Source of the DNA: a virus
Taxonomy: Duplodnaviria > Caudoviricetes
DNA: 64,000 nt
Strand: one strand, 5' to 3'
Virus record (IMG/VR): IMGVR_UViG_3300042483_000388
Shown here: positions 2,004 to 22,527 of the stretch, one piece after another
How positions within the stretch are numbered: the first letter of the stretch is position 1
How the letters are laid out: the number at the start of each line of letters is the position of its first letter
Translations under genes and position numbers: made by a program
Notes under the pieces: generated by a model
What the model saw: only the letters and a program-made list of their open reading frames with translations
The model's database searches: none
Told to the model about the DNA's origin: nothing

Positions 2004-4243
2004 ACTTTCTTAAATATAATCATTTATAATTCAATTATAAATAAAATTGTAAAATTAAATCACTCATATATAACTATAATGAAATAATATAATTACTCAC
2101 TCCTCCTACCGTTCATTTCATTCACTACGGATTCATTCATAATTAAATTCCTTCATTATAATAAATTGATCCCCCCATTTAATCACTCACATCTACGATG
2201 TTCGTTCTCCCCATTTAATCGGTCCCTTATTAGTAGACAAAATTCTTGACATATTTTTAGTAACACATTTTGTGTAATTATATTAAAGACCAATGGTCTT
2301 GATGAGGTAATTGTTATGGTGTGTTATTAGTTGGTAGATGAAGGGGGGAATTAATCATATCTATAAGATAAGGTTTCACCTTAATGAAATGATATAAAAG
2401 ATCCCCACTTATTACCACTTAAGAATATGTTTACATGTCTATATAAGTTGTCTATTTTTATGGGGTCAAAGGTTGAAAGGGACTTAAGTTGGACATAAGT
2501 GGTCACTTATGGATCGTTGAAGTAACTACTCTAACGTCCTAAAGGACTGTCCACGGCTAAGGTTCTGAAACACTATACTTTTGGCTGGAAATTACCTATA
2601 GTTAAAAAAGTGGTCCTGTAGACCCCTACAGAGGGGATTTATTTGATTTTTTATCCTCTCACTATAGCAACAGGACTATTATCGGTGGGAGAAAGTGGTA
2701 ATGATTGTGGGAGAAAGTGGTAACAAAGTGGGTGAGGGGGATTGTGTGGTGTTCATCCCCTGACTGACATAATGACAAAAACAAGAAAATTAACATATTT
2801 ATTTATTAACAATTCTATCCTTATGATATCAACACTCAACAAATTCGATAAAGTTATCAACAAAAGTGGTAACACAATAACCCTGACATATTGTCACTAT
2901 AACTTTTCTGGCACGTGTACTTACCAAGAAGTAACAACTAAAGGGTTAAGAAAACCCATAGAACAAAGTTTTTTTGTATTGGTTTCAACTGACATGGGAG
3001 ATGTAATAGAATATAGGCATAAGGAAACCCCTCTAACAAGTGGGGATTTATTATTGGTGGACAAAGATATAAGGGATCATTCCCTCCAATACATTAAGGA
3101 GAATATAATTTAAGAGAAGGGGTTTATGATCCCCCACCTCCTTATCAGTCAGGGGGTGAATATTACGCCCCAGGAATACAGGTAGTATAGTATGGTTAAT
3201 ATTCCAATGACTGTTAGTATAACCTGAATGGTTTTTCTAAATACCCACACGCCATAGACAGCGACCACCAATAGTATTAAGATTGTTATAGTATTCATAT
3301 CACAAATATAATCATTATACTTTAATTAATATAATATATTGTGAACTTTATTTGACTTACAAAGTATTTATATGTAGTTACTTATTATCCCCATGGTTGG
3401 GATTTAGTTATTCAGTCGCCACGGCACGTAAAGAATAAGATGGGTAATGACAATAAGAATAAACATATGGTTCACCAAACGTGGGGAACAGATTGAATCT
3501 CTCTCATAACGAGGGGGAATTTTTTTGTGCTTATCCCTTTGGTTCCAAGTCCTCATCGGTAATGATATGTCTACGGACCCATCCACTTAGTTTAGTAGTG
3601 GGGAAATACTCCAACACCAACATGGATCCACATGTAAATAATACAATGAAAAACATTAAGACACTAACAATGATCGTTAGTATATAAAGGGTCGGACTAA
3701 GACACATACCTTCCCTCCTCCTTCAATGGATTAACAAGTGGTTCACATGGTAATGGTCTACAGATCATAAGTGATATCCCCACACCAAAGAGGGGAAGAG
3801 TAATATATATTAATAGGTTCTTCATAGTGATATAAAGATACACATAATATCTAATAGGAACAAGGGGGTCTCATACAATTATTATAAGTCCCTTATATAT
3901 ATATTATAAGGCAGGTTGGAGTCTACACTCCAAGCACCCCCAAGACTGCCAGCCCGACATCTCTCTCATAGTGTCATAACAAAGATACGGATTCATTTTG
4001 ATATAACCAAACATTCCCCCATATATTATTACATTAAAGTTATTAACAATTCATATGACACCATGTCATGTTGATAACTTAATACTCCCCTCCCCATCCT
4101 TGGCATACCCTACCATAGGGGATATGACCCCCTCCCCCCCACCGTATCCCCCCCATATATGACATTTTGACAGGCCGTAGGGGGGTTCAATCCCTTTTAC
4201 AAAGTATTCGTAAAAAAATTCTGGAAAAATTTTTGGGAAAAAA
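2004..4243. other. Long, mostly non-coding region with repeated boxes, G/C runs and A-tracts (origin- or terminus-like, unassigned)
   Basis: No convincing protein. TGACA-N3-TGTCA at 2884-2896 and 4056-4068; TGACA-N3-TGACA at 2765-2777 and 4160-4172; TTAT(C/T)AACA at 2803, 2854, 4040 and reverse at 4069; GTGGGAGAAAGTGGTAA duplicated near 2685-2723; C-run block 4129-4154; A/T tracts 4211-4243. Confidence 0.45.
3980..4011 (-). promoter_or_regulatory. Bacteroidota-type sigma70 promoter
   Basis: Minus strand reads TTTG (4011-4008), 20-nt spacer, TATCTTTG (3987-3980). Confidence 0.7.
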
Positions 4244-4300
4244 TTGAAACTATTCCCCCATTACATAGTGAGAACATATTTATCACTAAAGAAATATATT

Positions 4301-4669
4301 ATGAAAAGATTTAGACTTACGGAATCAGATTTAACGAGGATTGTTAAACGAGTGATAAATGAAGACACTGAAAATAATAGTGTTAAGAAACTTATCTCAC
4401 TTTTGGTAAAGAATGATTTTATTGATATGGATAATGAAACTGTAAATGTCTATGACGATCACATAGAGGTCTACTCAATTAAAGGGTTTGATTATCCATA
4501 CTTTGAAGAAAACTTTATTAAGTTATATCCTGAAGATATTGATGATGGATATGTTTATGTCGAGAGGGAAGATTATGGTGAAGAAATTGATGACGAGGAA
4601 TATGAAGAGGTTCTTAGTCACATGTGGGGTGATTGGTATGATAAACTAGAACTTGAGTTTCTTGACTAA
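4301..4669 (+). CDS. Leader-family protein (MKRFRLTESDLTRIVKRVINE) with acidic payload; putative head-packaged protein
   Basis: Probable start ATG 4301 after TATTTAT at 4277-4283; the track start at 4244 is an upstream extension. Confidence 0.75.
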   Translation: MKRFRLTESDLTRIVKRVINEDTENNSVKKLISLLVKNDFIDMDNETVNVYDDHIEVYSIKGFDYPYFEENFIKLYPEDIDDGYVYVEREDYGEEIDDEEYEEVLSHMWGDWYDKLELEFLD

Positions 4670-4681
4670 TTAAAATATTAT

Positions 4682-4712
4682 AACCCCATTCAAATTAAGA
4701 GTGGGGTTTTTT
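4682..4712 (+). terminator. Intrinsic terminator, repeat family A (CCCCAT...AAGAGTGGGG-Tn)
   Basis: Hairpin plus T-run; AAGAGTGGGG recurs at 4697, 5168, 5936 and 8310. Confidence 0.75.
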
Positions 4713-4735
4713 ATTTTCCGTTATATTTATCTTAT

Positions 4736-5152
4736 ATGAAAATCGTTATAACAGAATCTCAGTATAACTTATTGGTTGAATCAAAAAAAGATAAATTTAA
4801 AAAGTTTTTAAAAGACAAATTTGATTTTGAATTGGAAGTTAAACTTATTGAAACGTATGATGATATTCCAACTAATATTCGTGATTTGGTATCCCTTAGG
4901 TGGTTTAAGTCTCAGATAAATGCATTTGGTCCTTTGTATCTTTTTAAATTTAATGATAGAACTTTTTTATTTGTGGATAGCGAACGCAATGGTGGATTTG
5001 CTTTGGAAATAATTTATCATAATTCTTGGGCGAATGGCATGGATAGTAAAATTGGTGGAACTACCTCTTTAACAGGAGATCGTTTAAACAAACTATTTAA
5101 TATTAGTGAAATTGGGTTGGACCCCATTGTTATAATAAAATTGTATTTATAA
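4736..5152 (+). CDS. Leader-family protein (MKIVITESQYNLLVE) with KFLK..FGP.Y domain
   Basis: ORF track; domain shared with the C-terminus of 10589-11413 and with 11410-11853; TATTTAT at 4724. Confidence 0.75.
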   Translation: MKIVITESQYNLLVESKKDKFKKFLKDKFDFELEVKLIETYDDIPTNIRDLVSLRWFKSQINAFGPLYLFKFNDRTFLFVDSERNGGFALEIIYHNSWANGMDSKIGGTTSLTGDRLNKLFNISEIGLDPIVIIKLYL

Positions 5153-5183
5153 ACCCACCTTTTAATTAAGAGTGGGGATTTTT
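5152..5183 (+). terminator. Intrinsic terminator, repeat family A
   Basis: AACCCACCTTTTAATTAAGAGTGGGGATTTTT. Confidence 0.65.
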
Positions 5184-5204
5184 GTTTCTTGTATATTTAT
5201 TAAT

Positions 5205-5594
5205 ATGAAAATTATAAGACTTACTGAATCAGATTTAACTCGTATTGTTAAACGAGTAATTAATGAAGACTTTAAACAAACCTCATGGGAAGATATTTGG
5301 TTTAAGTTAAGAAGATTATCACAAAGTTTTCATTTTCCTGAAGATCCTGAGTATAGTTTTGGTGGACTTAATTTTATGGTTTCGGAAGACGGAGAAAGTT
5401 TGGAACTAATGGACATTTATAAAGATCCTTATATGTGGAGAGATGACTATTATGAAGGTGTTGAGGTTTTAGAAAAGTATTCAAATAAAATTAAAAACTT
5501 TGTTGATGAGTTTAATTTAAAATACGACTATCCATTTACCCTTATGTTTAAAATGGGTCCAAATTATGATATGAAATTTTACACTGAAGATTAA
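5205..5594 (+). CDS. Leader-family protein (MKIIRLTESDLTRIVKRVINE)
   Basis: Probable start ATG 5205 after TATTTAT at 5194-5200. Confidence 0.75.
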   Translation: MKIIRLTESDLTRIVKRVINEDFKQTSWEDIWFKLRRLSQSFHFPEDPEYSFGGLNFMVSEDGESLELMDIYKDPYMWRDDYYEGVEVLEKYSNKIKNFVDEFNLKYDYPFTLMFKMGPNYDMKFYTED

Positions 5595-5758
5595 ATAATG
5601 TGAAATTTATTCTAAACCCCCACCTCATCAGTGGAGGTTTTCTAAAACACGACCCCTCTTTTTTAATAATACCTAATTACTGAAAAAAAAATTTTAGAAA
5701 AATTTAACCAAGTTTTATATGTTGATATTATTAAATAATATTACTAACGTTTAACTAT

Positions 5759-5911
5759 ATGAAAAACCTTGGAATTATATTATCCGCATTGGTAACCATT
5801 TTTTTGGTATTATATTATGTGAACCCATTTATTATCTATCTTATTGGATGTTATCAGGTCGGGGTATGGATTGGGGACACCATGATTAAATTGATTGAAA
5901 AAGATGATTGA
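5759..5911 (+). CDS. Small membrane protein (50 aa)
   Basis: Hand translation: MKNLGIILSALVTIFLVLYYVNPFIIYLIGCYQVGVWIGDTMIKLIEKDD*; followed by a family A terminator. Confidence 0.55.
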   Translation: MKNLGIILSALVTIFLVLYYVNPFIIYLIGCYQVGVWIGDTMIKLIEKDD

Positions 5912-5920
5912 TAAAAATAT

Positions 5921-5952
5921 AACCCCATTTTTAATAAGAGTGGGGTTTTTTT
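5921..5952 (+). terminator. Intrinsic terminator, repeat family A
   Basis: AACCCCATTTTTAATAAGAGTGGGGTTTTTTT. Confidence 0.75.
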
Positions 5953-6006
5953 GAATATCTAAGTATTTATTAATAAATTAAAACATTATAAATAAATAAA
6001 AATATT

Positions 6007-6339
6007 ATGGCAAGAATTATAAGATTAACTGAACAAGATTTGGCTCGTATCGTTAGAAGAGTTATTATGGAACAAGAAGTTAAAATGGTTCAGGGATCCG
6101 CTTGGGCTTGTTATGGTGGTGCAGAAGGACCAGCTCCCGATTACGCAACAATGAATGGAAACGAAATTGAATTTTTCCAAGACGATTCAATGATGAAATC
6201 CCTTGGTAAAGTATATTTACCAAAAGCACAAAAAACTAGAGGTCAATTTTGTGGAACTCCATCACAAGTAGGAACCTCAGTTGTGTTAACAAGTGATCAA
6301 GGAAAATATACTTGTACGACTGATTGTTTACCAAGTTAA
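6007..6339 (+). CDS. Leader-family protein (MARIIRLTEQDLARIVRRVIME) with small Cys-containing payload
   Basis: ORF track; TATTTAT at 5964. Confidence 0.75.
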   Translation: MARIIRLTEQDLARIVRRVIMEQEVKMVQGSAWACYGGAEGPAPDYATMNGNEIEFFQDDSMMKSLGKVYLPKAQKTRGQFCGTPSQVGTSVVLTSDQGKYTCTTDCLPS

Positions 6340-6509
6340 TAAAAAAATTAATATAAATCCCCATTCCAATATGATATAAAATTCTTCTTTTCTTATTGGG
6401 CGCCGGAACCCCGTCCCGACTTCGTCGGTTTTTTATAATTTACTTAAGTAAGTATTTCAGAAAAGGTGGATTTTTTTATATTATGTGGTATTTATAAATA
6501 AAGAATATT

Positions 6510-6824
6510 ATGTCAAGAATTATAAGATTAACCGAATCAGATTTAATTTATTTAATTAAGGATGTTATTAATGAATCTTTTATGGAAAAGAAAATTAATG
6601 ATGTTAAAATAATAAATAAGATACAAAATGAATTAGGGAATAAAGTCTCTTCAGGAAATTTTGTTTTGCAAATTGGTGGTGCTGTGTCAGGAGGTGTTAT
6701 TATAAGACACCCTGATTATGATAATAATAAAAAACAAATAAAAATTTCTATTAAGGACCAATCGGGTATTCCAAGTAAAGGTACATGGTCAATTAATGGA
6801 ACACATTTAATACTTAAACAATAA
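6510..6824 (+). CDS. Leader-family protein (MSRIIRLTESDLIYLIKDVINE)
   Basis: ORF track; TATTTAT at 6489. Confidence 0.75.
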   Translation: MSRIIRLTESDLIYLIKDVINESFMEKKINDVKIINKIQNELGNKVSSGNFVLQIGGAVSGGVIIRHPDYDNNKKQIKISIKDQSGIPSKGTWSINGTHLILKQ

Positions 6825-7459
6825 TGAAAAAAGTAATTAGACTTACAGAAAGAGATTTAACAAGATTGGTTAAACAAATTATTAGGGAAGAAGAAATGGA
6901 CCACCAATCTCAGATGGCCGCTTGGAAAGAAGAAGATAGAAAAAAATCACTTAAACCTAAATCAATTGAGATTAAATTTTTACCTAAATGGGATGAATTT
7001 ATGTCCAATATGAAAAGTGGGTCGTTGCGTGGAAACATAAACATAGGTAGTACCGTTATGTTATATGCCAATGGTTCAGAAGAAAAAATTGGAACTGGCC
7101 CATATGAAATTGAAAACGATAGACAAGTGTTTTATTATGCAACATATAGACCAGATAAGAATCAAATAAATGTTAATGGATATTTCTGTTTTGGTGATGC
7201 AGTTATTGGAGATTATGATCCAAAACACTTACTTAACAAAGACCCTGAAAGTTATTTCAATGCAAGAAGAAGCGGTGAGAATACGAAAGGTCTTGGTTTT
7301 TGTAAGTCTGGTGGTAATTTCCATAGTGAGTTTGATTCTTTTAATATTGGGGAAACTGACAACAATGATTTTTTTGAGGTTGTTAAAACTGATGGAGAAT
7401 ATCAACCAAAAGAAGATGAACAATTATTTGAAAGATATTATAAAAGAAGAAGTTATTAA
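6824..7459 (+). CDS. Leader-family protein (MKKVIRLTERDLTRLVKQIIRE) with C-terminal LFE-RYYKRRSY tail
   Basis: ORF track. Confidence 0.75.
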   Translation: MKKVIRLTERDLTRLVKQIIREEEMDHQSQMAAWKEEDRKKSLKPKSIEIKFLPKWDEFMSNMKSGSLRGNINIGSTVMLYANGSEEKIGTGPYEIENDRQVFYYATYRPDKNQINVNGYFCFGDAVIGDYDPKHLLNKDPESYFNARRSGENTKGLGFCKSGGNFHSEFDSFNIGETDNNDFFEVVKTDGEYQPKEDEQLFERYYKRRSY

Positions 7460-7465
7460 AAACTT

Positions 7466-7494
7466 AACCCCATCCATAACAGGTGGGGTTTTTT
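7466..7494 (+). terminator. Intrinsic terminator, repeat family B (CATCCATAACAGGTG core)
   Basis: AACCCCATCCATAACAGGTGGGGTTTTTT; the 15-nt core is repeated at 10542-10556. Confidence 0.75.
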
Positions 7495-7517
7495 GTTTCT
7501 CGTATATTTATCATTAT

Positions 7518-7928
7518 ATGAAAATAGAAATAAGTAAGTTACAATATCAAAGGGTTGTTTATAAGTTATTGGATGCCTTATATGGTCCTAATATTTCATT
7601 TAAAAAAGATGATGATATATTTGAGATTTTATCAGATAATGGTGAAGAAATTTTTAGACTTTATACAAAGGAGGGAAGATCTAAAGGATGTAAAAGAGAT
7701 ATGTTAGTTCTTACTAAGACAATTGAGGAAATTAAAATGTTTTTTCCACCAGCGGTATTAAGAAAAAAACTATTTTCTAAAACAATAATTTCTTATGTCA
7801 ATGAAAAAACAAATCTTGATATTGATTGTATTGATTTTGCGTATGAAATATATGATAATGATGAAACTTATTTAGAAACTAAATATAGGTTTAACGTTAA
7901 AAAGAATAAAAAAACAAGATCTATGTAA
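7518..7928 (+). CDS. Hypothetical protein, paralog of 11850-12290
   Basis: Probable start ATG 7518 after TATTTAT at 7505: MKIEISKLQYQRVVYKLLDALYGP...GCKRD...LDIDCIDF...FNVKKNKK. Confidence 0.75.
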   Translation: MKIEISKLQYQRVVYKLLDALYGPNISFKKDDDIFEILSDNGEEIFRLYTKEGRSKGCKRDMLVLTKTIEEIKMFFPPAVLRKKLFSKTIISYVNEKTNLDIDCIDFAYEIYDNDETYLETKYRFNVKKNKKTRSM

Positions 7929-8031
7929 GTTGTGGGTTTTATGTAAAGTAAAAGTCTACTAATCCGTAAAGTCGACCCCCCTTCTATTGATTGGGGGATT
8001 TTTTTTGTTTATTTTTTAATAAAAATATATT

Positions 8032-8289
8032 ATGGCAAAAATTAATGTTTATCGCACTGAGTCTTATGACACTTGGATTCTTAAAGAACCTGTTGAGATT
8101 GATACTGACAATTACCCAGAAATGGAAGGGATGACGGAAGAGGAAATGAAAGATTATATCCGTGAGAATTATCACGATATGAAACCAACCAGCAATAAGT
8201 GGTATGGTAGTCTATCTGAAGAATTGGATGGTCAGGATGTTCGTAGAGATAAGATCACAAACGAGGATCAGGACATTATGTTCGACTAA
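8032..8289 (+). CDS. Hypothetical acidic protein
   Basis: ORF track; flanked by hairpin terminators at 7975-8006 and 8293-8325. Confidence 0.7.
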   Translation: MAKINVYRTESYDTWILKEPVEIDTDNYPEMEGMTEEEMKDYIRENYHDMKPTSNKWYGSLSEELDGQDVRRDKITNEDQDIMFD

Positions 8290-8292
8290 ATT

Positions 8293-8325
8293 AAATCCCC
8301 ATTCCTAATAAGAGTGGGGTTTTTT
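8293..8325 (+). terminator. Intrinsic terminator, repeat family A
   Basis: AAATCCCCATTCCTAATAAGAGTGGGGTTTTTT. Confidence 0.75.
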
Positions 8326-8374
8326 GTTTCACTTATTTAAGTGTTAGAGTATATTTAAAATTATATATTATTCT

Positions 8375-8773
8375 ATGGTTAGAAAAGACATTTATAAAAT
8401 TGATATACAAGATGGTTTATATTTTTTAGTATTCCATAAAACATTTAATGGTGGGTTTGGATCCGCAGTGTCCTTATATGTAAATGAATTTGAATATTTA
8501 AAATTTGATTGTTTCGGGGAAAACGAAGGTCATTACCATATTTATGATGACATAACAAATGAGATTATTTATTTTATTGAAAAAACATGTGAAGAACAAA
8601 TAAGTCGCACTTCTTATGAATTAATTAATAATATTGACACATATCTAAATAAAAGTAAAAATGTGGACATAAAAAATTTTAAAATAAATCATAAAGATTT
8701 TATAGATAAAATAGATGATGTAAAAAATAAAATGTTAGAATATGAATATAATTTTTATTCAACTTTAAGGTAA
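8375..8773 (+). CDS. Hypothetical protein
   Basis: ORF track, 132 aa; no recognised motif. Confidence 0.65.
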   Translation: MVRKDIYKIDIQDGLYFLVFHKTFNGGFGSAVSLYVNEFEYLKFDCFGENEGHYHIYDDITNEIIYFIEKTCEEQISRTSYELINNIDTYLNKSKNVDIKNFKINHKDFIDKIDDVKNKMLEYEYNFYSTLR

Positions 8774-8784
8774 AATATAAAACC

Positions 8785-9438
8785 ATGACACCACACCATT
8801 TATCAGAAAAATTTTATTCATCAATTAATTTGGTGGTAAATAAGACACAACCAAAAAAAATACTATTTTTAGCAAAGGTCTTTTGTGAAGAATGGTTATT
8901 ACCTAATATGTTAACGTATTCAGATGATGTTCATATTGATTATCTTCTAATACAAGAAGATGAGGTTATTGGTCTTGAGTGTGAAATTAAAGAGGGAATG
9001 AAATATAATTTCCCACATCACTATGTTTCATTTGATGAGTTTAAAAACTTTTCATTTTTGGATTCTTATGATTTTATTATAATGGATACAGTTCATTATA
9101 AGGACTATATGGATTACATTTTTAAAAACATAATTCCTTTGTGTAACGGCTATGTTTTATTGCATGATACATTACCACAAAGTGAGGGGTCTTTGACAAT
9201 ACCTCGTAGATCTGACACTAGTCCTTGGGTTGGTCAAACATATATTTCATTCCATAATTTTCATTTGGCCAATAAGAATATATCACATAATTTTGATGAT
9301 GGGTATGTTGGGTACGGGGTAATTGATTGTTCTAAAAATAATATTAATATTGATTATGATGACTCGATAATGTGGGGACTAGATGAAATTAAACTTAGTT
9401 CCATTCCTCACGAACAATTTGGTAATGTTATAATGTAA
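8785..9438 (+). CDS. Putative class I SAM-dependent methyltransferase-like protein (Methyltransf_24-like)
   Basis: YDFIIMDTVHYKDY...LCNGYVLLHDTLP resembles the D-x-I-x-I-D-x-x-H...G-x-I-x-x-H-D pattern; the SAM-binding motif I is unclear. Confidence 0.5.
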   Translation: MTPHHLSEKFYSSINLVVNKTQPKKILFLAKVFCEEWLLPNMLTYSDDVHIDYLLIQEDEVIGLECEIKEGMKYNFPHHYVSFDEFKNFSFLDSYDFIIMDTVHYKDYMDYIFKNIIPLCNGYVLLHDTLPQSEGSLTIPRRSDTSPWVGQTYISFHNFHLANKNISHNFDDGYVGYGVIDCSKNNINIDYDDSIMWGLDEIKLSSIPHEQFGNVIM

Positions 9439-9464
9439 AAAAAATTATAGAAGTATTTATTAGT

Positions 9465-9977
9465 GTGAAAAAAATTATAAGATTAACAGAAAGAGATTTA
9501 ACAAGGATTGTTAAACGTGTAATTAATGAACAACTAGGTGGTTTATTAAGTATGCCAGACACAGGTCAAGATGTTGTAGGTCTAAATAAAGGATTTCAAC
9601 AATCAAGATGTAAAACTTACAAATCATATGGTGAATTGACTTTAGAATTATTTGGTAAATTAAGGGCCGTTGTAGGACAAACAAACTTATTAGATACAAC
9701 AATTCAATCGTGGATATCACGACTAAACAATTCAATGAAAGGTATTGGATCATCTAACGATTTGTCAAAGGTATTGTCTGAAATAAAAACTAAAGAACAA
9801 ATGGGTTCCGTATTAAACGCATATAATAAAAAATTTGGTAAAACATTATGGCAAGATTTAAGTGGTGAACAAACAATAACGTGGAATACAATTTGGGGAA
9901 TTGTCAAAAAATTTAAATCTGGAATATCAATGGATGGGTGTAAAGAATACCGTAAAAGTCAACCAGTTAACGCATAA
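9465..9977 (+). CDS. Leader-family protein carrying an annexin-repeat-like domain
   Basis: Leader MKKIIRLTERDLTRIVKRVINE; payload MKGIGS-[38 aa]-E with Y...FG..L..DL in annexin register; GTG start after TATTTAT at 9454. Confidence 0.7.
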   Translation: MKKIIRLTERDLTRIVKRVINEQLGGLLSMPDTGQDVVGLNKGFQQSRCKTYKSYGELTLELFGKLRAVVGQTNLLDTTIQSWISRLNNSMKGIGSSNDLSKVLSEIKTKEQMGSVLNAYNKKFGKTLWQDLSGEQTITWNTIWGIVKKFKSGISMDGCKEYRKSQPVNA

Positions 9978-9987
9978 TACCATTAAT

Positions 9988-10518
9988 ATGTCAAGAATTA
10001 TAAGACTTACAGAAAGAGATTTAACAAGAATTGTTAGACGAGTAATTAATGAACAAGTTCCCTTGATTAACCTTCTTGGTGCCGCTTCAGATGTTGGTCT
10101 CAATATTCCAAATTATGCGGACGATTTAACTGTTGCCAATAGAAATGCGACAAAAACTGGGTGTAAAGTTCCAAAAACAACGTTAGAAATGTGTCAAGAA
10201 TTATTTAATAACTTAATTAAGACCAAGGCACCAAAGATAGAAGATAAAAAAATCGGAGAATGGGTTTCACGACTAAATAAATCGGCGCAAGGGTTTGGTG
10301 GGGAGGATATATCAAAAATTTTATCTGAAATACCCACTCTTCCGGCAATGGTTAACGTATTTCAGATATATAACAAAATATATAAAAATACAAGATTTAA
10401 GGTAACGGCTGCCAATGATGAATGGAACAAAATTTGGGAAGTAATGAAAAAATATAACATTGGAAATAAGGTGGATTCGTGTAAAGAATATCACCCCAAT
10501 CCAACATTAAGCTCATAA
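9988..10518 (+). CDS. Leader-family protein, paralog of 9465-9977 (degenerate annexin-like repeat)
   Basis: Probable start ATG 9988 (MSRIIRLTERDLTRIVRRVINE); shares C.T...LE...W.SRLN.S..G.G..D.SK.LSEI and W..IW...KK...D.CKEY. Confidence 0.7.
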   Translation: MSRIIRLTERDLTRIVRRVINEQVPLINLLGAASDVGLNIPNYADDLTVANRNATKTGCKVPKTTLEMCQELFNNLIKTKAPKIEDKKIGEWVSRLNKSAQGFGGEDISKILSEIPTLPAMVNVFQIYNKIYKNTRFKVTAANDEWNKIWEVMKKYNIGNKVDSCKEYHPNPTLSS

Positions 10519-10536
10519 TGTCATTAATATAATATC

Positions 10537-10565
10537 AACCTCATCCATAACAGGTGTGGTTTTTT
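10537..10565 (+). terminator. Intrinsic terminator, repeat family B
   Basis: AACCTCATCCATAACAGGTGTGGTTTTTT. Confidence 0.65.
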
Positions 10566-10588
10566 GTTTTCCATTATATTTATCATAT

Positions 10589-11413
10589 ATGAAAATCATT
10601 CTTACAGAAGATCAGTGTGAACAATTAACTGAAATGATTAAACTTGACATCAAGGTGGGTGATACCATAATGGGTGGCAAGTTTAAAAATAAGAAGGTTG
10701 TTGTAAAAACAATTGGAAAAAATGATAAGGGAGATATCACAATTAACGGTAAACCATTATTGAGATTCAGAATTATAAAAGAAAATAACTTTCATTTGCT
10801 TAGAAGAGAATCTATGATAAAAAAAAAATTAGATTCAATAATTCAAAATAGGTTTACTAATGAAGAATTTCAATTTATGCCCTTTGAACATTTTAGATTA
10901 CACATATCTGATTATGTTGGTACCGAAATGGCACACGAACTTAATTTAATGGGAGATGAAAGAGTTACATTTAGAAATCAAATAATTCAGTATGTTCGTA
11001 ATCATTTTTATGAATATTTAAAAGAAATTTGGGAATCAAAACAAAACATTAATGAAAACACATCAATGTCTGAAAAAAACAAAAAGTTTTTAAAAAATAA
11101 ACTGAATATTGATTTCACAAATGGAATCAAACAAATAACATCTCAAGAGGATATCCCACGAGTTTTTATTGACGATGCTTTAAGTTGGGTGGGGTTAAGA
11201 AAGTCTTTAAATTTTTGGGGACCTATGTATCTATTTGAACTTGAAGGACGTAAACTTTTATATCAAGATAGGGGTGAGTTTGAATGGTTTATGGATGAAA
11301 ATGGTCATGACTATGTTGATGATGAAATTACTGAACATCTTGGGATTGGAATTATGGGTTTAAAATTCTCAGATATTGTTGACACATATTTTGAAGAGGA
11401 GGACCAAATATGA
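10589..11413 (+). CDS. Multi-module leader-family protein (MKIILTEDQCEQLTE; internal INE junction)
   Basis: Probable start ATG 10589. Modules: IKLDIKVGDTIMGGKFKNKK beta-domain, a helical segment, and a C-terminal KFLK..WGP.Y domain. Confidence 0.7.
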   Translation: MKIILTEDQCEQLTEMIKLDIKVGDTIMGGKFKNKKVVVKTIGKNDKGDITINGKPLLRFRIIKENNFHLLRRESMIKKKLDSIIQNRFTNEEFQFMPFEHFRLHISDYVGTEMAHELNLMGDERVTFRNQIIQYVRNHFYEYLKEIWESKQNINENTSMSEKNKKFLKNKLNIDFTNGIKQITSQEDIPRVFIDDALSWVGLRKSLNFWGPMYLFELEGRKLLYQDRGEFEWFMDENGHDYVDDEITEHLGIGIMGLKFSDIVDTYFEEEDQI

Positions 11414-11853
11414 AAATAATTATAACGGAAATTCAACTCAAAACGGTGATATTTCAAAACATTAATGAATCCACATCCAAAGAAAAAAATAAAAATTTTC
11501 TTAAAGATAAGTTTGGAATTGACCTTGACGGAAAAATTAAAATGATTCAAAGTTATGAAGATCTTCCACTTGTGTTTGCCTCTCATTTTTATCCAAAATC
11601 TTTTAACAGGATGTTAAATGATGGTGGTCCGTTTTATGTGTTAAACATTAATAAAGGTTATAAAATTGGTAATACATATGTAAACAAACTTTATTTATAT
11701 CGACCTCGAGTTGACGGATCTAGTTATTTAGTAGACCAAGATGGGTATAATAAAGCCGAATCCACTTTTTTGGAAAATCTTGGAATTGATGTGATGGGTT
11801 TAACGATTGAAGATTTAATTGATTTGTATTTTAATGAGGAGGATCAAATATGA
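11410..11853 (+). CDS. Leader-family protein with KFLK..GGP.Y domain
   Basis: ORF track; ends YFNEEDQI like the upstream gene (YFEEEDQI). Confidence 0.75.
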   Translation: MKIIITEIQLKTVIFQNINESTSKEKNKNFLKDKFGIDLDGKIKMIQSYEDLPLVFASHFYPKSFNRMLNDGGPFYVLNINKGYKIGNTYVNKLYLYRPRVDGSSYLVDQDGYNKAESTFLENLGIDVMGLTIEDLIDLYFNEEDQI

Positions 11854-12290
11854 AAGTAGAAATAAGTAAGACACAATATCAAAGGGTCATTTATAATTTA
11901 TTGGATACGTTGTATGGTCCAAAACTTTCATATGAAAGAAAAAATGATATGATATACATATATTCAAATGATAATGATCCTTTTGAAGATGAGTCGATTG
12001 GAGAAGGCGATGCGATATTTAGAGTTTATACGGGTAGTGGTAAAGGTAAAGGATGTAAAAAAGATTTGTATGTTACTTCTGAGACCGGAGAAGAAATAGA
12101 AGATTTTATACCAAAAGCCGCAACAAGAAAAAAATTATTCGCCAAAACTGTTATTTCTTATGTTAATGAAAAAACGGGACTTGATATTGATTGTATTGAT
12201 TTTTGGTATCAAACAGGTTTAGAGGATAATTCGTCTAGCTACGATAAATATAATTTTAATGTGAAAAAGAATAAAAAGATTAGAACATAA
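11850..12290 (+). CDS. Hypothetical protein, paralog of 7518-7928
   Basis: MKVEISKTQYQRVIYNLLDTLYGP...FNVKKNKK. Confidence 0.75.
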   Translation: MKVEISKTQYQRVIYNLLDTLYGPKLSYERKNDMIYIYSNDNDPFEDESIGEGDAIFRVYTGSGKGKGCKKDLYVTSETGEEIEDFIPKAATRKKLFAKTVISYVNEKTGLDIDCIDFWYQTGLEDNSSSYDKYNFNVKKNKKIRT

Positions 12291-12336
12291 ACAGTTAGGT
12301 TTTTGTTTTATAGACTATTTATAAATAAAAAATATT

Positions 12337-12894
12337 ATGAAACACTTATTAAATGACATGTCTTTTGAGGAAAGACAAAATATTAGAGAACAACACACAG
12401 GAGGAATGAAAGTTATGTCCGATAATTTCCGTAGATTGGTGAACGGAAAACTTGGAGATTCAAAACCATTGGTATCTGAGCAGGTTACGGGGGATACAAC
12501 CACAACACCTGTTGCTGGTGGTGGGGGTGCGGCCGTTGAGACATTTGATAATGTATTAAACACATCACCAAATGTTTTGTTTAATAAGTCTAGTGTTAAA
12601 AAATACAACACAGAGGTTGTTACTTGGAATCAGGGATTATCTGGTAAAATAGAAAACACATTTTATAAAAATTGTAATACAGGTGCGTTAACAAATACAA
12701 AAAAGGCCGCTGCAACCCCATCTCAAAACTTGTTTTCCACACGACTATGTAATGTTCTTTTCCCTAACTTACAAGTTGCAGTAAATGCTAGAGAATATTC
12801 CGCAAAACAAGCTCAATATATAAAAGACAACCCATCACAGACGGGAGCTCCAACACATTATAGAAGTGACGGATCAACTACAATGGATAACTAA
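12337..12894 (+). CDS. Putative virion protein with second-type leader (MKHLLNDMSFEERQNIREQH)
   Basis: ORF track; TATTTAT at 12316; LVSE junction. Confidence 0.7.
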   Translation: MKHLLNDMSFEERQNIREQHTGGMKVMSDNFRRLVNGKLGDSKPLVSEQVTGDTTTTPVAGGGGAAVETFDNVLNTSPNVLFNKSSVKKYNTEVVTWNQGLSGKIENTFYKNCNTGALTNTKKAAATPSQNLFSTRLCNVLFPNLQVAVNAREYSAKQAQYIKDNPSQTGAPTHYRSDGSTTMDN

Positions 12895-12902
12895 AAAAAT
12901 AT

Positions 12903-13382
12903 ATGGGTAATTATGTAGATTTATCGGATAAAGCTCTTAGGGTTATAATATTTACCCTAAATAGAGAATTTGACGAAAATGATATTGATATTGAAGGAAA
13001 TGATATTTTTCAAGAAGAAGTTGTTGAAGTTATTGATAAAGCGTTGGAATATTTTAATATAAAAGATCAAACCATTGAGTTATATTCATATTTCATTTCT
13101 CTATGTCTTTTAAATCCTGATTATTTAGATAAGAATGTCCCAATACAAAGACCTAGATTAAACAATTATGAAGTTATTCATAGTGAGTCAAATAGAGTTT
13201 GGCAAACTACCACATATAGAAACGTAATGCCATCATATATTGAGTTGGATAAAGATATGCTTGGAGATTTAAGGTCAATAGATTTATACGATTATTGGGA
13301 TGGTGAAATAATTAGTGAATATGTGGACGATAGTGAAACGACTGATGATGAGGTGGAGGAAATAAATATGATTCGCAAGTAG
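12903..13382 (+). CDS. Hypothetical acidic protein
   Basis: ORF track. Confidence 0.65.
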   Translation: MGNYVDLSDKALRVIIFTLNREFDENDIDIEGNDIFQEEVVEVIDKALEYFNIKDQTIELYSYFISLCLLNPDYLDKNVPIQRPRLNNYEVIHSESNRVWQTTTYRNVMPSYIELDKDMLGDLRSIDLYDYWDGEIISEYVDDSETTDDEVEEINMIRK

Positions 13383-13433
13383 AAAATTTAAATAAACTAT
13401 TTTCTTATGAAAATAATCAATTAGGATTAAATT

Positions 13434-13616
13434 ATGACAAACGAACAAAAAGGTGTTAGATATAGTCAACTAATGATGGAACACACCCATCTACAAAACA
13501 AAGTTGCAGAAATTAAAGGTCAATCAATTGAACTAAATGAACAACAGAGAATGGAAATTAAAGAACTACAACAAAAAATGATATATCTATTTAATTTGGC
13601 GACCAAACTTTATTAA
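13434..13616 (+). CDS. Small coiled-coil protein
   Basis: ORF track; heptad-like Q/E/L/K pattern. Confidence 0.6.
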   Translation: MTNEQKGVRYSQLMMEHTHLQNKVAEIKGQSIELNEQQRMEIKELQQKMIYLFNLATKLY

Positions 13617-13674
13617 ATTCCGATCAAGGTTATTTTTTTTTTGATTCATTTTATATTTATATAAAAAAATCACT

Positions 13675-13869
13675 ATGTCAAAAATTATAAGATTAAATGA
13701 AATAGAAATGAGTTCTTTAGTTAAGAAAGTTATTTCCAAATTAAAGGGAGTTTCCGAAAAACAAATCAACTATAACATAGAACATGATTTACCATGGGAT
13801 TGGACCGGAACTAAAGAAGGTTATCTTGAAAAATTGGAACCAAGGAAAAACAATTCTGGATCCAATTAA
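13675..13869 (+). CDS. Leader-family small protein (MSKIIRLNEIEMSSLVKKVI)
   Basis: ORF track; TATTTAT just upstream. Confidence 0.7.
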   Translation: MSKIIRLNEIEMSSLVKKVISKLKGVSEKQINYNIEHDLPWDWTGTKEGYLEKLEPRKNNSGSN

Positions 13870-13907
13870 ATGTTTTTTATTTTTTTAATTGACCTACATT
13901 TCTATTA

Positions 13908-14237
13908 ATGAAAAAAGCGACAATTAATTTATTTGATATGGTTTATGGGGAGATAGTCCCGATAGAATCAACCCTATTTGGTAGGGTGGTTTTTTTGTTC
14001 TACCCAGTTGATGGGGATACCCCTACCATTATCTATTACCCGAACACAAAAGAAATCAAAACACTTAGAGAACTTGAATCTGAGTTTTCATCCTTTATTC
14101 CGCTTGGTAGGGATAAATTTAAAGAATCGTACCAAATATGGTTAACAGAACGATATGGTGATGAGTTCACTATGAAAGGAATTGATTATTTGGAATTTGT
14201 TAGTAAAGAAACATTTGACCATTTACGATTATCATAG
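13908..14237 (+). CDS. Hypothetical protein
   Basis: ORF track. Confidence 0.6.
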   Translation: MKKATINLFDMVYGEIVPIESTLFGRVVFLFYPVDGDTPTIIYYPNTKEIKTLRELESEFSSFIPLGRDKFKESYQIWLTERYGDEFTMKGIDYLEFVSKETFDHLRLS

Positions 14238-14262
14238 TATTTATATAAAAAACATATCGTTT

Positions 14263-14307
14263 ATGAAAAAAATTAATGAATCGGCATTGCATAGAATAAT
14301 TTTATGA
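14263..14307 (+). CDS. 14-aa leader-only mini-ORF (MKKINESALHRIIL*)
   Basis: Hand translation; follows TATTTAT at about 14238; its TGA overlaps the ATG of the 14304 gene (ATGA). Confidence 0.4.
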   Translation: MKKINESALHRIIL

Positions 14308-14798
14308 AAAAAGTAATTAGATTAACCGAATCAGAATTTATTAGAACAATTAAACTTATTATTGAGGAAGTAGAAAATTCCCAAGCATCAGATATAAGCA
14401 AAGTTCAAAACCTTGTAAATTTGGAGGGGGGTAAAGTTGACGTTAAAGGACTTTTAAATAAAAATAACCCAATTTGTGAACCACCAATAACTGGTAACCA
14501 AGAAAATGATAACATCATTAAAAAAGTTTGGGATTGGGCACATGATCCATCAAATAGAAACGATCTAAAAACTACACTTAAAAATTTAAAGGACGCCATT
14601 TTTAAATCAAAGAAAGAACAAAAAACTGTAGAAGTAAATGAACAGGTTGGTGTTGGTATTGTAATTGGTGGTATAACCTTAGGTCCTAGTGTCTTAATCG
14701 CTATTGGTGCCGTATTAGTGATTATACTTATAATAGCTCTTATACCAAAGAAAAGTTCTTGTCAAAAAAGAAGTAAACAAAATTTTTGGGGAAACTAA
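14304..14798 (+). CDS. Leader-family protein with C-terminal transmembrane segment
   Basis: MKKVIRLTESEFIRTIKLIIEE; hydrophobic GVGIVIGGITLGPSVLIAIGAVLVIILIIALIP then a basic tail. Confidence 0.75.
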   Translation: MKKVIRLTESEFIRTIKLIIEEVENSQASDISKVQNLVNLEGGKVDVKGLLNKNNPICEPPITGNQENDNIIKKVWDWAHDPSNRNDLKTTLKNLKDAIFKSKKEQKTVEVNEQVGVGIVIGGITLGPSVLIAIGAVLVIILIIALIPKKSSCQKRSKQNFWGN

Positions 14799-14828
14799 TA
14801 AAATAAAATAAAACAATATAATATAAAA

Positions 14829-15647
14829 ATGAAAAAAAATCTATTTGTAATTAGCGAAAGTGAAAAAGAAAGAATACTTGGTATGCATCGTAATGCGACT
14901 AAAAGACATTACCTAGCAGAAGAACTGATACCCATTAAGGATAAAACTACAGGAAAGGTTAGTATGTACAACGGACCATTAGCTCCAACAGGATCGGATA
15001 AGATAACACAAATAGAGTTTGATACTATAATGAAAACTCAACAACCAACAACAGTTGCCGGAACATCTGGTACAACAACACCATCTGGTACAACTAATGT
15101 TGTAAAATTTAATATTATAAATGATAAAGATTATGAATATAAAAGAGAGGGTGACAAATATTCATTTAAAATTAGGGAAACTCCAGTTAGTCCAAAGGTT
15201 TTAGCGTTAAAACAACAAGGAAAATATGTTGATTGGACAGTAGCAACTGGAGCTGGATTAGATGCGATAAAAAAATTACCATTTAAAATTGACACTTCAC
15301 CCACGGAACCAATGAAAACTCTAAACCCAACGTCAGTATCATCAACCGCAACACAACTAAGTTTACCTGGAACTTCAGGAGCAACCGCAACTTCAGGAGC
15401 AACCGCAACTTCAGGAGCGTTACCACAACTTCAGGGAGTTGTTGACACCACTAATATGGCATCCGCAAAAGATATCCGTCAGGGATATAGACAAGGAAAA
15501 AGAGATGTTAGAGAGCTTGAGAGAGAGTTAAGACAAAATCAAAACACTCTTCAGAGAATGGCAAATAAAATGACACCAGAACAAAAGAAACAATACGAAA
15601 CTAAAATTGCTCAATTACAAATCCAAATAAATCAGTCCGCAACATAA
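14829..15647 (+). CDS. Putative virion protein (MKKNLFVISESEKERILGMH leader), Thr/Gly-rich linker, coiled-coil tail
   Basis: ORF track; leader and tail shared with 15655-16497. Confidence 0.75.
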   Translation: MKKNLFVISESEKERILGMHRNATKRHYLAEELIPIKDKTTGKVSMYNGPLAPTGSDKITQIEFDTIMKTQQPTTVAGTSGTTTPSGTTNVVKFNIINDKDYEYKREGDKYSFKIRETPVSPKVLALKQQGKYVDWTVATGAGLDAIKKLPFKIDTSPTEPMKTLNPTSVSSTATQLSLPGTSGATATSGATATSGALPQLQGVVDTTNMASAKDIRQGYRQGKRDVRELERELRQNQNTLQRMANKMTPEQKKQYETKIAQLQIQINQSAT

Positions 15648-15654
15648 TATAAAA

Positions 15655-16497
15655 ATGAAAAAAATTTTATTTGTAATTAACGAAAGTGAAAAAGAAAGAA
15701 TACTTGATATGCACAAAAGTGCCTCCAAAAGACATTACTTATCTGAAAAATCATCAGCGTTCAAAACTTTAAATGAACAGTTTAACCCAACTAATGGGAT
15801 ATACACAACTAAAAACGATCAATCTTTAATGTCTTCTATAGACTTTAATACTCAACACCCAAATAAAATACCTGCAGGTACAAAAATATATCATGACTAT
15901 AATAATAAAAGTAACACTAAAATTATTATAGGTAACACTGGTGTTGTTGCGTATTGTGATCGTAATTTATTTACATATAACGATTCAATTACTGACCTTA
16001 AGAATGATGGGTTTATGAATGTTATTAAAAGTGTTTTTTGTAATGGGAATAAATTAAAAACTTGGGACCAACTAACTAATAAGGTTGTTAAAGACAAGGT
16101 AAAAACCATTACAGGTGGTGGTGGGTCATTATCAGGAACTACTGAAATATCGGGAACAACTGGAACAACAAGTAATCTTAAGACTACGGAATTCCCCGAA
16201 ATAAAAATAACTCCACAGAAACTTCAGGGAGTTACAGGAACAACAGTTACGTCAGGAGCGACAGGATCTGTACCACCACTTCAGGGAGTTGTTGACACTA
16301 CTAATATGGCATCAAGAAGTGACATTCGTCAAGGATATAGACAAGGAAAAAGAGATGTTAGAGAACTTGAAAAAGAATTAAGACAAACTCAAAATACGTT
16401 ACAAAGACTGTCAAATAAAATGACACCAGAACAAAAGAAACAATACGAAACTAAAATTGCTCAATTACAAATCCAAATAAATCAATCGGCAAGATAA
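15655..16497 (+). CDS. Paralog of 14829-15647 with a different central domain
   Basis: 73-nt exact DNA identity 15562-15634 vs 16412-16484. Confidence 0.75.
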   Translation: MKKILFVINESEKERILDMHKSASKRHYLSEKSSAFKTLNEQFNPTNGIYTTKNDQSLMSSIDFNTQHPNKIPAGTKIYHDYNNKSNTKIIIGNTGVVAYCDRNLFTYNDSITDLKNDGFMNVIKSVFCNGNKLKTWDQLTNKVVKDKVKTITGGGGSLSGTTEISGTTGTTSNLKTTEFPEIKITPQKLQGVTGTTVTSGATGSVPPLQGVVDTTNMASRSDIRQGYRQGKRDVRELEKELRQTQNTLQRLSNKMTPEQKKQYETKIAQLQIQINQSAR

Positions 16498-16500
16498 TAA

Positions 16501-16914
16501 GTGGATAATAAGGATAAACTTAATAAACTTTTAAAGAATATATCGTTTGATACTAAAGTAAGGATTGACGTTCATTCAAGTTATTTTAATATAAATTATC
16601 GTTTGGAACTTTTAGGTAAAAAAGATATGATCAGTATGGGTGAATGGGTTACCTATGATGTTTTTAATGTTACCATATTTAATATGGATGAAAACTTAAA
16701 AAAAATAATTAAAGTTTTTGGGGATTTAATGAAGGTAAATCTATTTAAAGACTATGTTTTTATGAGTGATGTTAATGCTGGTGTTAGAAATGAGTTACAA
16801 TATTTTTCACCATCAGGAAACATATATGTCAAAATTAACGAAATTAAGATGTCACCAAATTTAGAAAAAGAAATAAACGACATTGATTTATCAAAATTTC
16901 CAACAAAAAACTAA
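16501..16914 (+). CDS. Hypothetical protein
   Basis: ORF track, GTG start. Confidence 0.6.
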   Translation: MDNKDKLNKLLKNISFDTKVRIDVHSSYFNINYRLELLGKKDMISMGEWVTYDVFNVTIFNMDENLKKIIKVFGDLMKVNLFKDYVFMSDVNAGVRNELQYFSPSGNIYVKINEIKMSPNLEKEINDIDLSKFPTKN

Positions 16915-16958
16915 ACTTTTTTAAATTGTCATATATTTATTAATATAAAAAAAATATT

Positions 16959-17453
16959 ATGAAAAAAATTAGATTAACAGAATCGGAATTCCATTCATTA
17001 GTTAAGAGAATGGTTATGGAAGTACAAGATCAAATGATGGAACCAGAAATGTCGGAAAATATTTTTGGGGATATCGGTAAAGGTTTAAAAAAATTTAGAA
17101 AGGGTTATGGATCTAAAGAAGAAAGAGACGAAATGAAAAAAGAGTTCATGGGCGATCTTGAAAGAATGGAAGATAAAATGATGGACATGGGATTCGATAA
17201 AACTCAATATGGTGATGAAGAAAATTGGGAAGAAGAAAAAGAAGATTTAATTGATCAAGCTGAAGAAAATGATTTTATGGGTTCATTAGGTGAAAACATT
17301 TACGTTAAAAAGTTTAAAATAAAATATACACCAGGAAAAACGGGAGCTCAACATATGGTTGCAGGACTTAAAAGTGGTGCTGGTTCCGCAGTAAGAAGTG
17401 GTATGAGTAAAGGAACTGCTAATGAAAATAGAAGAACATATAGAAGATTTTAA
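16959..17453 (+). CDS. Leader-family protein (MKKIRLTESEFHSLVKRMVME) with ANE-NRRTYRRF tail
   Basis: ORF track; TATTTAT at 16934. Confidence 0.75.
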   Translation: MKKIRLTESEFHSLVKRMVMEVQDQMMEPEMSENIFGDIGKGLKKFRKGYGSKEERDEMKKEFMGDLERMEDKMMDMGFDKTQYGDEENWEEEKEDLIDQAEENDFMGSLGENIYVKKFKIKYTPGKTGAQHMVAGLKSGAGSAVRSGMSKGTANENRRTYRRF

Positions 17454-17933: not shown

Positions 17934-17968
17934 ACAGCAAATATAAAACATTTATTAAATAAAAAAAA

Positions 17969-18394: not shown

Positions 18395-18456
18395 AATTTA
18401 TAATTTGTTAAAATCTAAATGAAAAAAAATAAAATGTAAAATAATATTTATATAAT

Positions 18457-18651
18457 ATGACAGATTTTTTAAAACATTTGTATTTGACACTGATGAACAA
18501 ATATGGTTCATTTATGTGGTTTGGTGTTCACATGGGTGTAACTCAAATTAATTGGCATTGGATTTTAGAAACTTTCGCTTGTGTCTTGATAAATTTAATG
18601 GTTTTACATACAATTTATATCGAGTGGAGGGATTCTAAGAATAACAATTAG
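18457..18651 (+). CDS. Small membrane protein
   Basis: Two hydrophobic stretches in 64 aa. Confidence 0.55.
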   Translation: MTDFLKHLYLTLMNKYGSFMWFGVHMGVTQINWHWILETFACVLINLMVLHTIYIEWRDSKNNN

Positions 18652-18714
18652 CATTCACCACAAATAAGTTTTTATTTAATCACAACTCAACACAATTAAA
18701 ATCGTATTTATTAT

Positions 18715-21171: not shown

Positions 21172-21186
21172 TAGATATTTATTTAT

Positions 21187-22500: not shown

Positions 22501-22527
22501 AACTTCTTATTTTTTACAATATAGACG

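Follow-up and report, generated by a model that had tools for sequence, protein, structure and literature searches.

The stretch of DNA analysed here (the window, 64,000 nucleotides (nt) of IMG/VR virus record IMGVR_UViG_3300042483_000388) carries close to its left end an array of about 26 small genes, all of them on the same strand, among which terminator hairpins, TATTTAT boxes and leader-coding stretches recur (Table 1). The window is AT-rich (G+C of about 30%), contains seven transfer RNAs (tRNAs) and is that of a T4-like myophage, with a prohead protease of the gp21 type, a major capsid protein of the gp23 type and a T4-type portal and large terminase. To the right of the array lies the gene of a protein that combines SprB repeats with a type IX secretion domain, CHU_C, and this protein points to a host among the Bacteroidota; a look-up of sequencing runs placed the window DNA in lake water metagenomes. 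The borders of the array were drawn from lists of open reading frames (ORFs) and from the homology of its left (2425–4306) and right (17938–22975) flanks, both of which are conserved in relatives. Its proteins offered little to known families: scans of 20 of them with Pfam and PHROG gave no family above threshold, with weak matches only to DUF7700 and, sub-threshold, to GH-E/DUF7167 on 8032–8289, and a comparison of the array with cultured and GenBank phages by blastn yielded a sole match of 153 nt, to an uncultured phage of 635 kb. The same scans of 20 proteins brought up no integrase or recombinase family, in agreement with an earlier reading of the bare letters (the original prediction), which had described the locus as an integrase-free array of cassettes.

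The hairpins between the array genes share sequence as well as structure. As had been pointed out in that reading, AAGAGTGGGG occurs exactly at 4697, 5168, 5936 and 8310 and CATCCATAACAGGTG at 7471 and 10542, always on the plus strand, and the four exact copies of AAGAGTGGGG compare with an estimated 0.02 or so expected from base composition. All six copies, which form the loop and 3′ arm, lie in the 3′ half of terminators composed of a hairpin and a T-run. On folding, four of these hairpins reached −12 to −15 kcal/mol, and the other two, the copies at 5150 and 10533, are decayed (−10.5 and −6.6 kcal/mol). A repeat search returned four copies of terminator A and three B-like copies, and matches to GGGGTTTTTTGTTT with up to two mismatches extend over 4703–10556 in the array, appear again at 17496 in the terminator just past the last array gene, and form a further cluster at 22210–22245, outside the array. 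Other hairpins close single cassettes, such as the family-C hairpin at the end of cassette h, which is found in two further places in the relative G004. At the right junction of cassette e there remains only the 5′ arm of a family-A terminator, without loop, 3′ arm or T-run, and this orphan arm is a scar. As for the terminator of cassette c, its 28-nt hairpin (5614–5641), with direct TTCTAAA repeats on its flanks, is missing in contigs of three out of four lake runs; it is an insertion/deletion polymorphism within the population.

Each hairpin leads into a box. The original prediction had most of them followed by TATTTAT, which holds for five of the six (4724, 5194, 5964, 7505 and 10577, 16–20 nt after the motif), and the sixth, the 8310 copy, is followed by the variant TATTTAA at 8352. 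Hairpin, T-run and box make up one composite unit, in which the distance from the G-run to TATTTAT is 17 nt in 25 of the 33 cases found in the window and its relatives. The exact composite GTGGGG-T6-G-T4-N6-TATTTAT, with 24 specified bases, was recovered from about 60 IMG/VR contigs, in 70 stretches of their DNA; some of these contigs are 240–290 kb long, and the copies lie upstream of genes with every leader type as well as of genes with none. A start codon follows 4–6 nt after the box in 48 of 63 IMG/VR composite cases. The same gap is seen in the window at the composites of 4724, 5194, 7505, 10577 and 49397. If the box were a −10-like element, these late messenger RNAs (mRNAs) would be leaderless or nearly so.

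The TATTTAT box is a genome-wide and not a cassette-specific feature, lying at most 40 nt upstream of 32 of the 94 ORFs (5.1 expected in shuffles, 8 in antisense), including those of the terminase, the portal, the protease and other head-region genes. Because it is common to structural genes, it is probably a late promoter. Other genes carry host-type Bacteroidota TAnnTTTG boxes, and TATTTAT is therefore a separate promoter class; the TAnnTTTG boxes stand before genes near the tRNA cluster and before some enzyme genes, for instance upstream of 30295, 31570, 32132, 34268, 35854 and 40382 (minus strand). Sigma-70-type sites are not enriched (110 vs 120.5 in shuffles), and TATTTAT has no −35 partner. 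The possibility that the T-run serves as a Bacteroidota −33 TTTG or as a sigma-70 −35 element was considered and dropped on reading the sequence against the generally known consensus, since the 10 nt from TTG to the box fit neither.

A leader-coding stretch is the other part that the array genes have in common, and 18 of the approximately 26 bear one: ten of type 1 (like MKKIIRLTESDLTRIVKRVINE), five of type 2 (MKI-I/V-ITE-x-Q), two reading ISESEKERIL and one MKHLLNDMSFEERQ, to which the relatives add two further types. The repeat search found nine leader copies of 75 nt at 61–87% identity. The DNA pattern originally put forward for the leader does match at 6840 and 10004, one base away from the positions first given (6839 and 10005), and its third copy, at 9481, deviates in a Leu codon; a 20-nt core, ACAGAAAGAGATTTAACAAG, is exact in all three. 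In type 1 we find protease-like motifs at two places, L-T-E at residues 7–9 and (I/V)-x-E at about residues 19–21. The leader peptides, which read MKKIIRLTESDL... or MKIIITE.Q..., show no similarity to the T4 tag MKTYQEFIAE, and tblastn of a leader against cultured and GenBank phages gave no match, although the 32-residue query makes this a weak search. Judging from the (L/I/V)-x-E motifs and the gp21-type protease, the products of the array are probably head-packaged internal proteins.

The likeness among leaders reaches beyond their amino acids. Type-1 leaders of the window and of eight relatives, 51 in all, were compared: where two leaders agree in an amino acid, they also agree in its codon in 69% of the comparisons, against 47% expected from phage codon usage. 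At one Arg position, codon 15 after the start of the RLTE anchor (e.g., 5256–5258), 26 of 41 leaders have CGA, a codon that makes up 5% of the Arg codons of the window; at leader positions 10–11, in addition, Thr and Arg codons come in linked pairs, ACA-AGA vs NCT-CGT. Synonymous identity is 63.6% within a genome and 58.7% between genomes (permutation value of about 0.001), an excess so small that homogenization within genomes by gene conversion was rejected as the main signal. With an excess of codon identity and little surplus within genomes, the leader DNA is therefore a module that different phages share by common descent.

What follows the leader, here called the payload, is another matter. 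Unrelated payloads stand behind leader DNA that is up to 92–94% identical, whereas orthologous genes of the same phages are 70–78% identical. Moreover, homologous payloads have been re-tagged: the window gene at 14304 and the G002 gene at 14363 are homologous only from residue 21/22, after different leaders, the C-terminal domain of gene m is found behind a type-1 leader in G004 (gene 1811), and gene 4052 of G002 has a hybrid type-2/type-1 leader. One more gene of G004 (5414–5758 in the reverse complement of L031) starts with a type-3 leader (MELNRFKQLLES...) and aligns only from its residue 57 with window 13675–13869, there from residue 7, within the type-1-like leader; it appears to hold two leaders in series.

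A conserved gene order across relatives was among the outcomes that the original prediction had named as speaking against it. Four relatives (G001, G002, G004 and G005) share with the window the left flank and a collinear right flank at 70–78% identity, with arrays of 13–18 kb in between, and about half of the array genes of the window are without counterpart in them. When payloads only are compared, the shared ones run c g h i m h′ o p q r s t x in the window, m g i r h q c p s x in G004 and m h o p s t x in G002, so that order is not conserved among relatives sharing both flanks. The right third of the array (p, s, t, x) is collinear and devoid of terminator composites; the left two-thirds are scrambled and are the sole part that holds them.

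Closer relatives allow the junctions to be read. L039 and L040, two independent metagenome contigs that are 99.7% identical to each other and 94–96% identical to the window, have the gene order b d f g h h′ m n o where the window has b c d e f g h i j k l l′ m n h′ o. They are thus without cassettes c and e and the block i–l′, and in them h′, a paralogue of the cassette h gene that lies at 11850–12290 in the window, comes directly after h with its own G-run/T-run/box composite. Both junctions of the loss of c are found just past a terminator T-run, the left one at 5193, the end of the T-run region of family-A copy 2. For e, the left junction is at 5952, the end of the T-run of family-A copy 3, and the other just past the orphan 5′ arm. 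At this place G004 has no cassette h, nor does a lake contig that joins 7498 to 8008; the two ends are in both instances at terminator T-runs, and many alternative continuations beyond 7498, in family-B copy 1, are present among lake metagenome contigs. Relatives only about 5% divergent in sequence differ by the presence or absence of whole promoter-gene-terminator units. In another relative, L041, gene g is 92% identical and its neighbours are entirely different.

L035, an IMG/VR contig, is a mosaic of blocks 86–98% identical to the window, whose edges were inspected base by base. Those at 7483 and 10555 lie within terminator 3′ arms and T-runs, with a 5′ arm and loop of another hairpin family, and upstream of gene h L035 retains an orphan 3′ arm only. 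The block starting at 10554–10555, in the 3′ arm of family-B copy 2, is 98% identical in L035, 94% in L039 and 77% in L009. The edge at 8292 coincides with the 5′ edge of a terminator, family-A copy 4, which is the left edge of block j–k (94% identical in L035), that at 11475 with a leader end, and that at about 12325 with a TATTTAT box; blocks of lower identity end at the leader ends 4358, 6071 and 6544. On the other hand, the edges at 7915, about 9445, 11397, 12900 and 13396 are plain start or stop codons, and those at 10783 and 11029 are in-frame domain junctions that make gene m chimeric: the L035 gene starting at 11591 matches its first 65 codons at 98% identity, and a different L035 gene, starting at 15364, matches its C-terminal domain at 90.5%. 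In an automatic count over six relatives, 16 of 32 edges fell in composite zones, which occupy 6.7% of the array (binomial P = 3.5e-11), five in leader zones and 11 elsewhere. Breakpoints in the terminator or leader-coding repeats had been expected, and with 21 of the 32 at composites or leaders, which together take up 16% of the array length, most of them are indeed there.

Altogether, the array is a hyperplastic region built of three stacked portable modules, and we propose that it is probably exchanged at the composites and leaders. The first module is the terminator hairpin with its T-run and a TATTTAT placed 17 nt further on, usually with a start codon 4–6 nt after the box. A leader of about 22 codons, of few interchangeable types and with (L/I/V)-x-E motifs of the kind cleaved by gp21-type proteases, represents the second, and the unrelated payloads the third. 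The first two modules are conserved at the DNA level across phages and the payloads are not, and recombination can therefore join at the modules. Whether the partners are relatives that infect the same cell or two cassettes of a single genome, DNA would be joined at either of these two modules, and whole promoter-gene-terminator units would be inserted, deleted, replaced or re-tagged with no need for a site-specific recombinase. Crossing over would then go through homology rather than through illegitimate joining stimulated by hairpins, and the late timing of the genes, as well as the packaging and cleavage of their products, is what the boxes and motifs would predict. The idea that the repeats act as recombination handles is to this extent borne out, as order is scrambled and edges cluster at modules; homologous crossover itself we infer, and a third of the edges are elsewhere.

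Several observations weigh against this proposal. Those 11 edges are at stop or start codons or at domain junctions and have no repeat, and the exact repeats of the array are only 18–27 nt long, inside stretches of 48–100 nt at 61–87% identity, which is thin for efficient homologous recombination. The junctions of cassettes c and h share only some 10–14 nt of imperfect G-run/T-run similarity, and the half hairpin left at the junction of cassette e indicates that at least one join was illegitimate. Joining by microhomology, or stimulated by hairpins, may thus have as large a part as true homologous crossover. Composite zones are, moreover, roughly the intergenic DNA, where selection for intact genes would give a similar enrichment. 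As regards tempo, L037 and L038 are collinear with window 5998–11753 at 99.8–99.9% identity, and Logan contigs from lake runs of 2020 and 2024 have the window form with 0–2 differences over 2–2.8 kb. The window arrangement is real and stable on that scale, and turnover is therefore not fast on it. Finally, all the relatives are metagenome assemblies, in which chimeras can form at repeats.

In a different explanation, the repeats are regulatory or targeting elements that look alike by virtue of their function and mark the gene borders rather than offering homology, and turnover comes from template switching, cruciform cutting, microhomology joining or other illegitimate or hairpin-stimulated events, among which selection keeps those between genes. 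The short microhomology at the junctions, the half-hairpin scars in the window (6357–6369) and in L035 (about 6178–6194), the 28-nt hairpin indel between 7-nt direct repeats, the third of edges at plain ORF borders and the limit of 27 nt on exact repeats all speak for it, and Mosig's T4 deletions at GGGC/GCCC inverted repeats, as cited by Arbiol et al. (PMC2839356), offer a precedent. But the high identity of the blocks at 7483 and 10555 starts inside the conserved 3′ arm and T-run, as it would after crossover in shared sequence, the synonymous sites of the leaders are more alike than codon usage predicts, and composites are confined to the scrambled part of the array. We thus hold this explanation to be unlikely, though deserving of some weight. 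The array could also be a tandemly duplicated family whose payloads have diverged beyond recognition, with residual paralogy in the leaders and upstream DNA and with birth and death of paralogues behind the differences among phages. Real paralogues do exist, namely the pairs 9465/9988, 14829/15655 and 7518/11850 and the domain family 4736/10589/11410. Such a history does not account for one payload behind different leader types, for the hybrid leader, for leader DNA more alike than orthologues in front of unrelated payloads, for the chimeric gene m, or for the exact composite upstream of many unrelated genes in about 60 contigs, which makes it very improbable. As a side note on these paralogues, the tandem genes 14829–15647 and 15655–16497 have C-terminal parts with 82–89% protein identity and an exact DNA repeat of 73 nt, which suggests a recent duplication.

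An assembly artefact, with different phages joined at shared repeats, would give mosaics of a similar look, and Logan contigs do break at the leader and terminator repeats. L039 and L040, however, were assembled independently and have the same junctions, which makes chimeric assembly an unlikely cause of the mosaic; the window arrangement is in turn present in L037, L038 and several runs, repeats of up to 27 nt are short, and the sequences at the junctions have diverged and are not simple joins. An artefact is, in our opinion, the least credible of these explanations. As to mini-circles of the kind released by recombination between neighbouring elements, the Logan contigs contain joints that go back along the array, whose sides are short and indistinguishable from other phages. 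Joints with sides under about 30 nt at 90% likeness, such as 4254>9466, 5269>16933, 9797>11479 and 10053>5995, may come from other phages or repeats and were not used as evidence.

Taking the modular proposal a step further, composite and leader together might constitute a portable adaptor meaning "express late, load into head", and the array a recombinase-free library of injected effectors held at the level of the population, as a phage counterpart of the integron. Any ORF recombined behind the adaptor would become late and insulated, its mRNA being possibly leaderless, its product would be packaged and injected, and turnover would be faster than 5% nucleotide divergence in these jumbo phages of lake Bacteroidota. 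Taken as a whole, this reading is tentative, and we consider it possible but doubtful.

Two other conserved stretches were noticed at the left end of the array. The non-coding DNA at 4060–4200, where C-rich and G-rich runs alternate, is 84–86% identical in L001, L011 and L018 and thus the best-conserved DNA adjoining the array; the region had been remarked on separately, in the first reading of the letters, as a candidate origin. A second intergenic motif, roughly CTGGAAAAA-TTTT-GGAAAAA-TT, occurs at 4221–4251 and 5681–5710, upstream of genes 4301 and 5759, and again in G004 (L031, about 930 and 2270 of the reverse complement). It is 82–86% conserved between phages, more than adjacent coding DNA, and may be another promoter class or a regulator site.

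Table 1. Features of the array and of its surroundings (window coordinates).
Feature	Position	Strand	Remarks
Hyperplastic array	4244-17453	+	~26 small same-strand genes; ORF lists, flank homology
Terminator family A, copy 1	4682-4716	+	stem and T-run; -15 kcal/mol
Terminator family A, copy 2	5152-5188	+	stem partly decayed; -10.5 kcal/mol
Terminator family A, copy 3	5921-5954	+	-14 kcal/mol
Terminator family A, copy 4	8297-8330	+
Terminator family B, copy 1	7466-7499	+	-13 kcal/mol
Terminator family B, copy 2	10537-10570	+	mismatched stem; -6.6 kcal/mol
Terminator family C	7975-8012	+	closes cassette h
Terminator of cassette c	5614-5645	+
Orphan 5′ arm, family A	6357-6369	+	no loop, 3′ arm or T-run
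TATTTAT box, example	4724-4730	+
Other array boxes	5194, 5964, 6489, 7505, 8352, 9454, 10577, 12316, 13654, 16934		8352 is TATTTAA
Boxes outside array	49397, 51386, 54653		upstream of terminase, portal and protease
Further boxes outside array	53199, 55725, 60401		genes 53220, 55754 and 60420
Cassette c	5194-5645	+	box, gene 5205-5594, terminator; absent in L039/L040
Cassette e	5953-6369	+	box, gene 6007-6339, half terminator; absent in L039/L040
Cassette h	7499-8007	+	box, gene 7518-7928, terminator C
Chimeric gene m	10589-11413	+
Type-1 leader, example	5205-5270	+	peptide like MKIIRLTESDLTRIVKRVINE
Other type-1 starts in array	4301, 6007, 6510, 6824, 9465, 9988, 13675, 14304, 16959		9465 is GTG
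Type-1 copies outside array	41488, ~23058	+, -
Type-2 leader, example	4736-4801	+	others start at 7518, 10589, 11410, 11850
Third leader type, ISESEKERIL	genes 14829 and 15655
Protein with SprB repeats and CHU_C domain	18715-21171		type IX secretion domain; Pfam
T4-type large terminase	49409-51184		Terminase_6N; Pfam
T4-type portal	51414-53195		Portal_T4; Pfam
gp21-type prohead protease	54674-55405	+	Peptidase_S77, E = 4.7e-22; TATTTAT box upstream
gp23-type major capsid protein	57512-59398		Gp23; Pfam

Exchange of small genes at repeated stem-loops has been described before in T4-type coliphages, where promoter/stem-loop cassettes (PeSLs) combine a strong sigma-70-like early promoter (−35 and −10 boxes preceded by AT-rich DNA) with a stable, G/C-rich stem-loop. 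PeSLs are concentrated in hyperplastic regions, both indels and replacements that set close relatives apart go through them, and recombination between neighbouring PeSLs releases mini-circles. They have been described for the phages RB49/phi1, PST/T4 and nt-1/KVP40 (PMC2839356, Arbiol et al. 2010; PMC4122927, Comeau et al. 2014). The array resembles them in its repeated composite of terminator stem-loop and promoter, located in a hyperplastic region and mostly upstream of ORFans, in the junctions of indels and replacements between close relatives, which fall in the composites, and in that no recombinase gene is involved. It differs in its promoter, the TATTTAT shared with head genes instead of the sigma-70-like −35/−10 pair of an early promoter, and in its stem, always upstream at a fixed 17 nt whereas PeSLs fall by position into five subclasses. 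The array lacks a Shine-Dalgarno sequence, its start codons come 4–6 nt after the box, a coding leader module is added on the regulatory one, and both host phylum and phage lineage are different.

The internal-protein loci of T-even phages are the second obvious comparison. According to PMC2839356, PeSL-like elements were seen by Repoila et al. (1994) at the two variable loci of this kind, and all that the more than 30 variants of these loci have in common is the capsid targeting sequence (also PMC3012670). In this regard, the contrast drawn by the original prediction, late and virion-loaded genes here rather than early ones, is weaker than it was put. In T4, the tag of the internal proteins ends at an (L/I)-x-E prohead-protease site and is cleaved off, and the proteins are packaged in the head. 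As at those loci, the array encodes diverse and unrelated small proteins that share only a short N-terminal tag ending at a prohead-protease motif, the phage encodes a gp21-type prohead protease, and polymorphism goes together with PeSL-like stem-loop/promoter elements, as described for the T-even loci in the same passages of PMC2839356. The tag of the array is, however, unrelated to MKTYQEFIAE, about 22 residues long, with two candidate cut sites and several interchangeable types; about 18 tagged genes are gathered in one locus, compared to three internal proteins in T4; and PMC2839356 describes the elements of T-even phages as built on T4 early promoters, with weak AT-rich stems.

With integrons the array has in common a one-directional series of small and mostly unknown genes, hairpin-forming repeats between them and a content that varies among close relatives, but it is not an integron: where integrons have a tyrosine-recombinase integrase, an attI site and promoter-less cassettes bounded by attC, there is here no attI/attC organisation and no integrase or recombinase match among the 20 proteins scanned, each cassette brings its own promoter and terminator, and exchange presumably goes through the general recombination of the phage. 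The "ORFanage" or hypervariable regions of cyanophages are likewise deletion-prone blocks of small genes in T4-like phages, as summarized in the abstract of PMC4503421, whose title and abstract mention no conserved terminator-promoter-leader module. PeSL-type shuffling has thus been documented in T4-type phages of Proteobacteria, on early promoters, and here the same logic is met in a distant uncultured lineage of Bacteroidota phages, on a different, late-type promoter and joined to interchangeable leaders that resemble head-targeting ones. If true, it would account for the way in which these phages build up and refresh their large sets of probably injected proteins; candidate cargo genes and exchange points could then be recognized from the sequence, concrete junctions are available for recombination tests in the laboratory, and the gap of 4–6 nt from box to start raises the question of leaderless late mRNAs in Bacteroidota phages. 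The array is an analogue, in a distant lineage, of both the PeSLs and the internal-protein loci and a member of neither family, and what this analysis adds is a fixed terminator-promoter composite, the wide conservation of this unit and comparative evidence for exchange at the level of cassettes.

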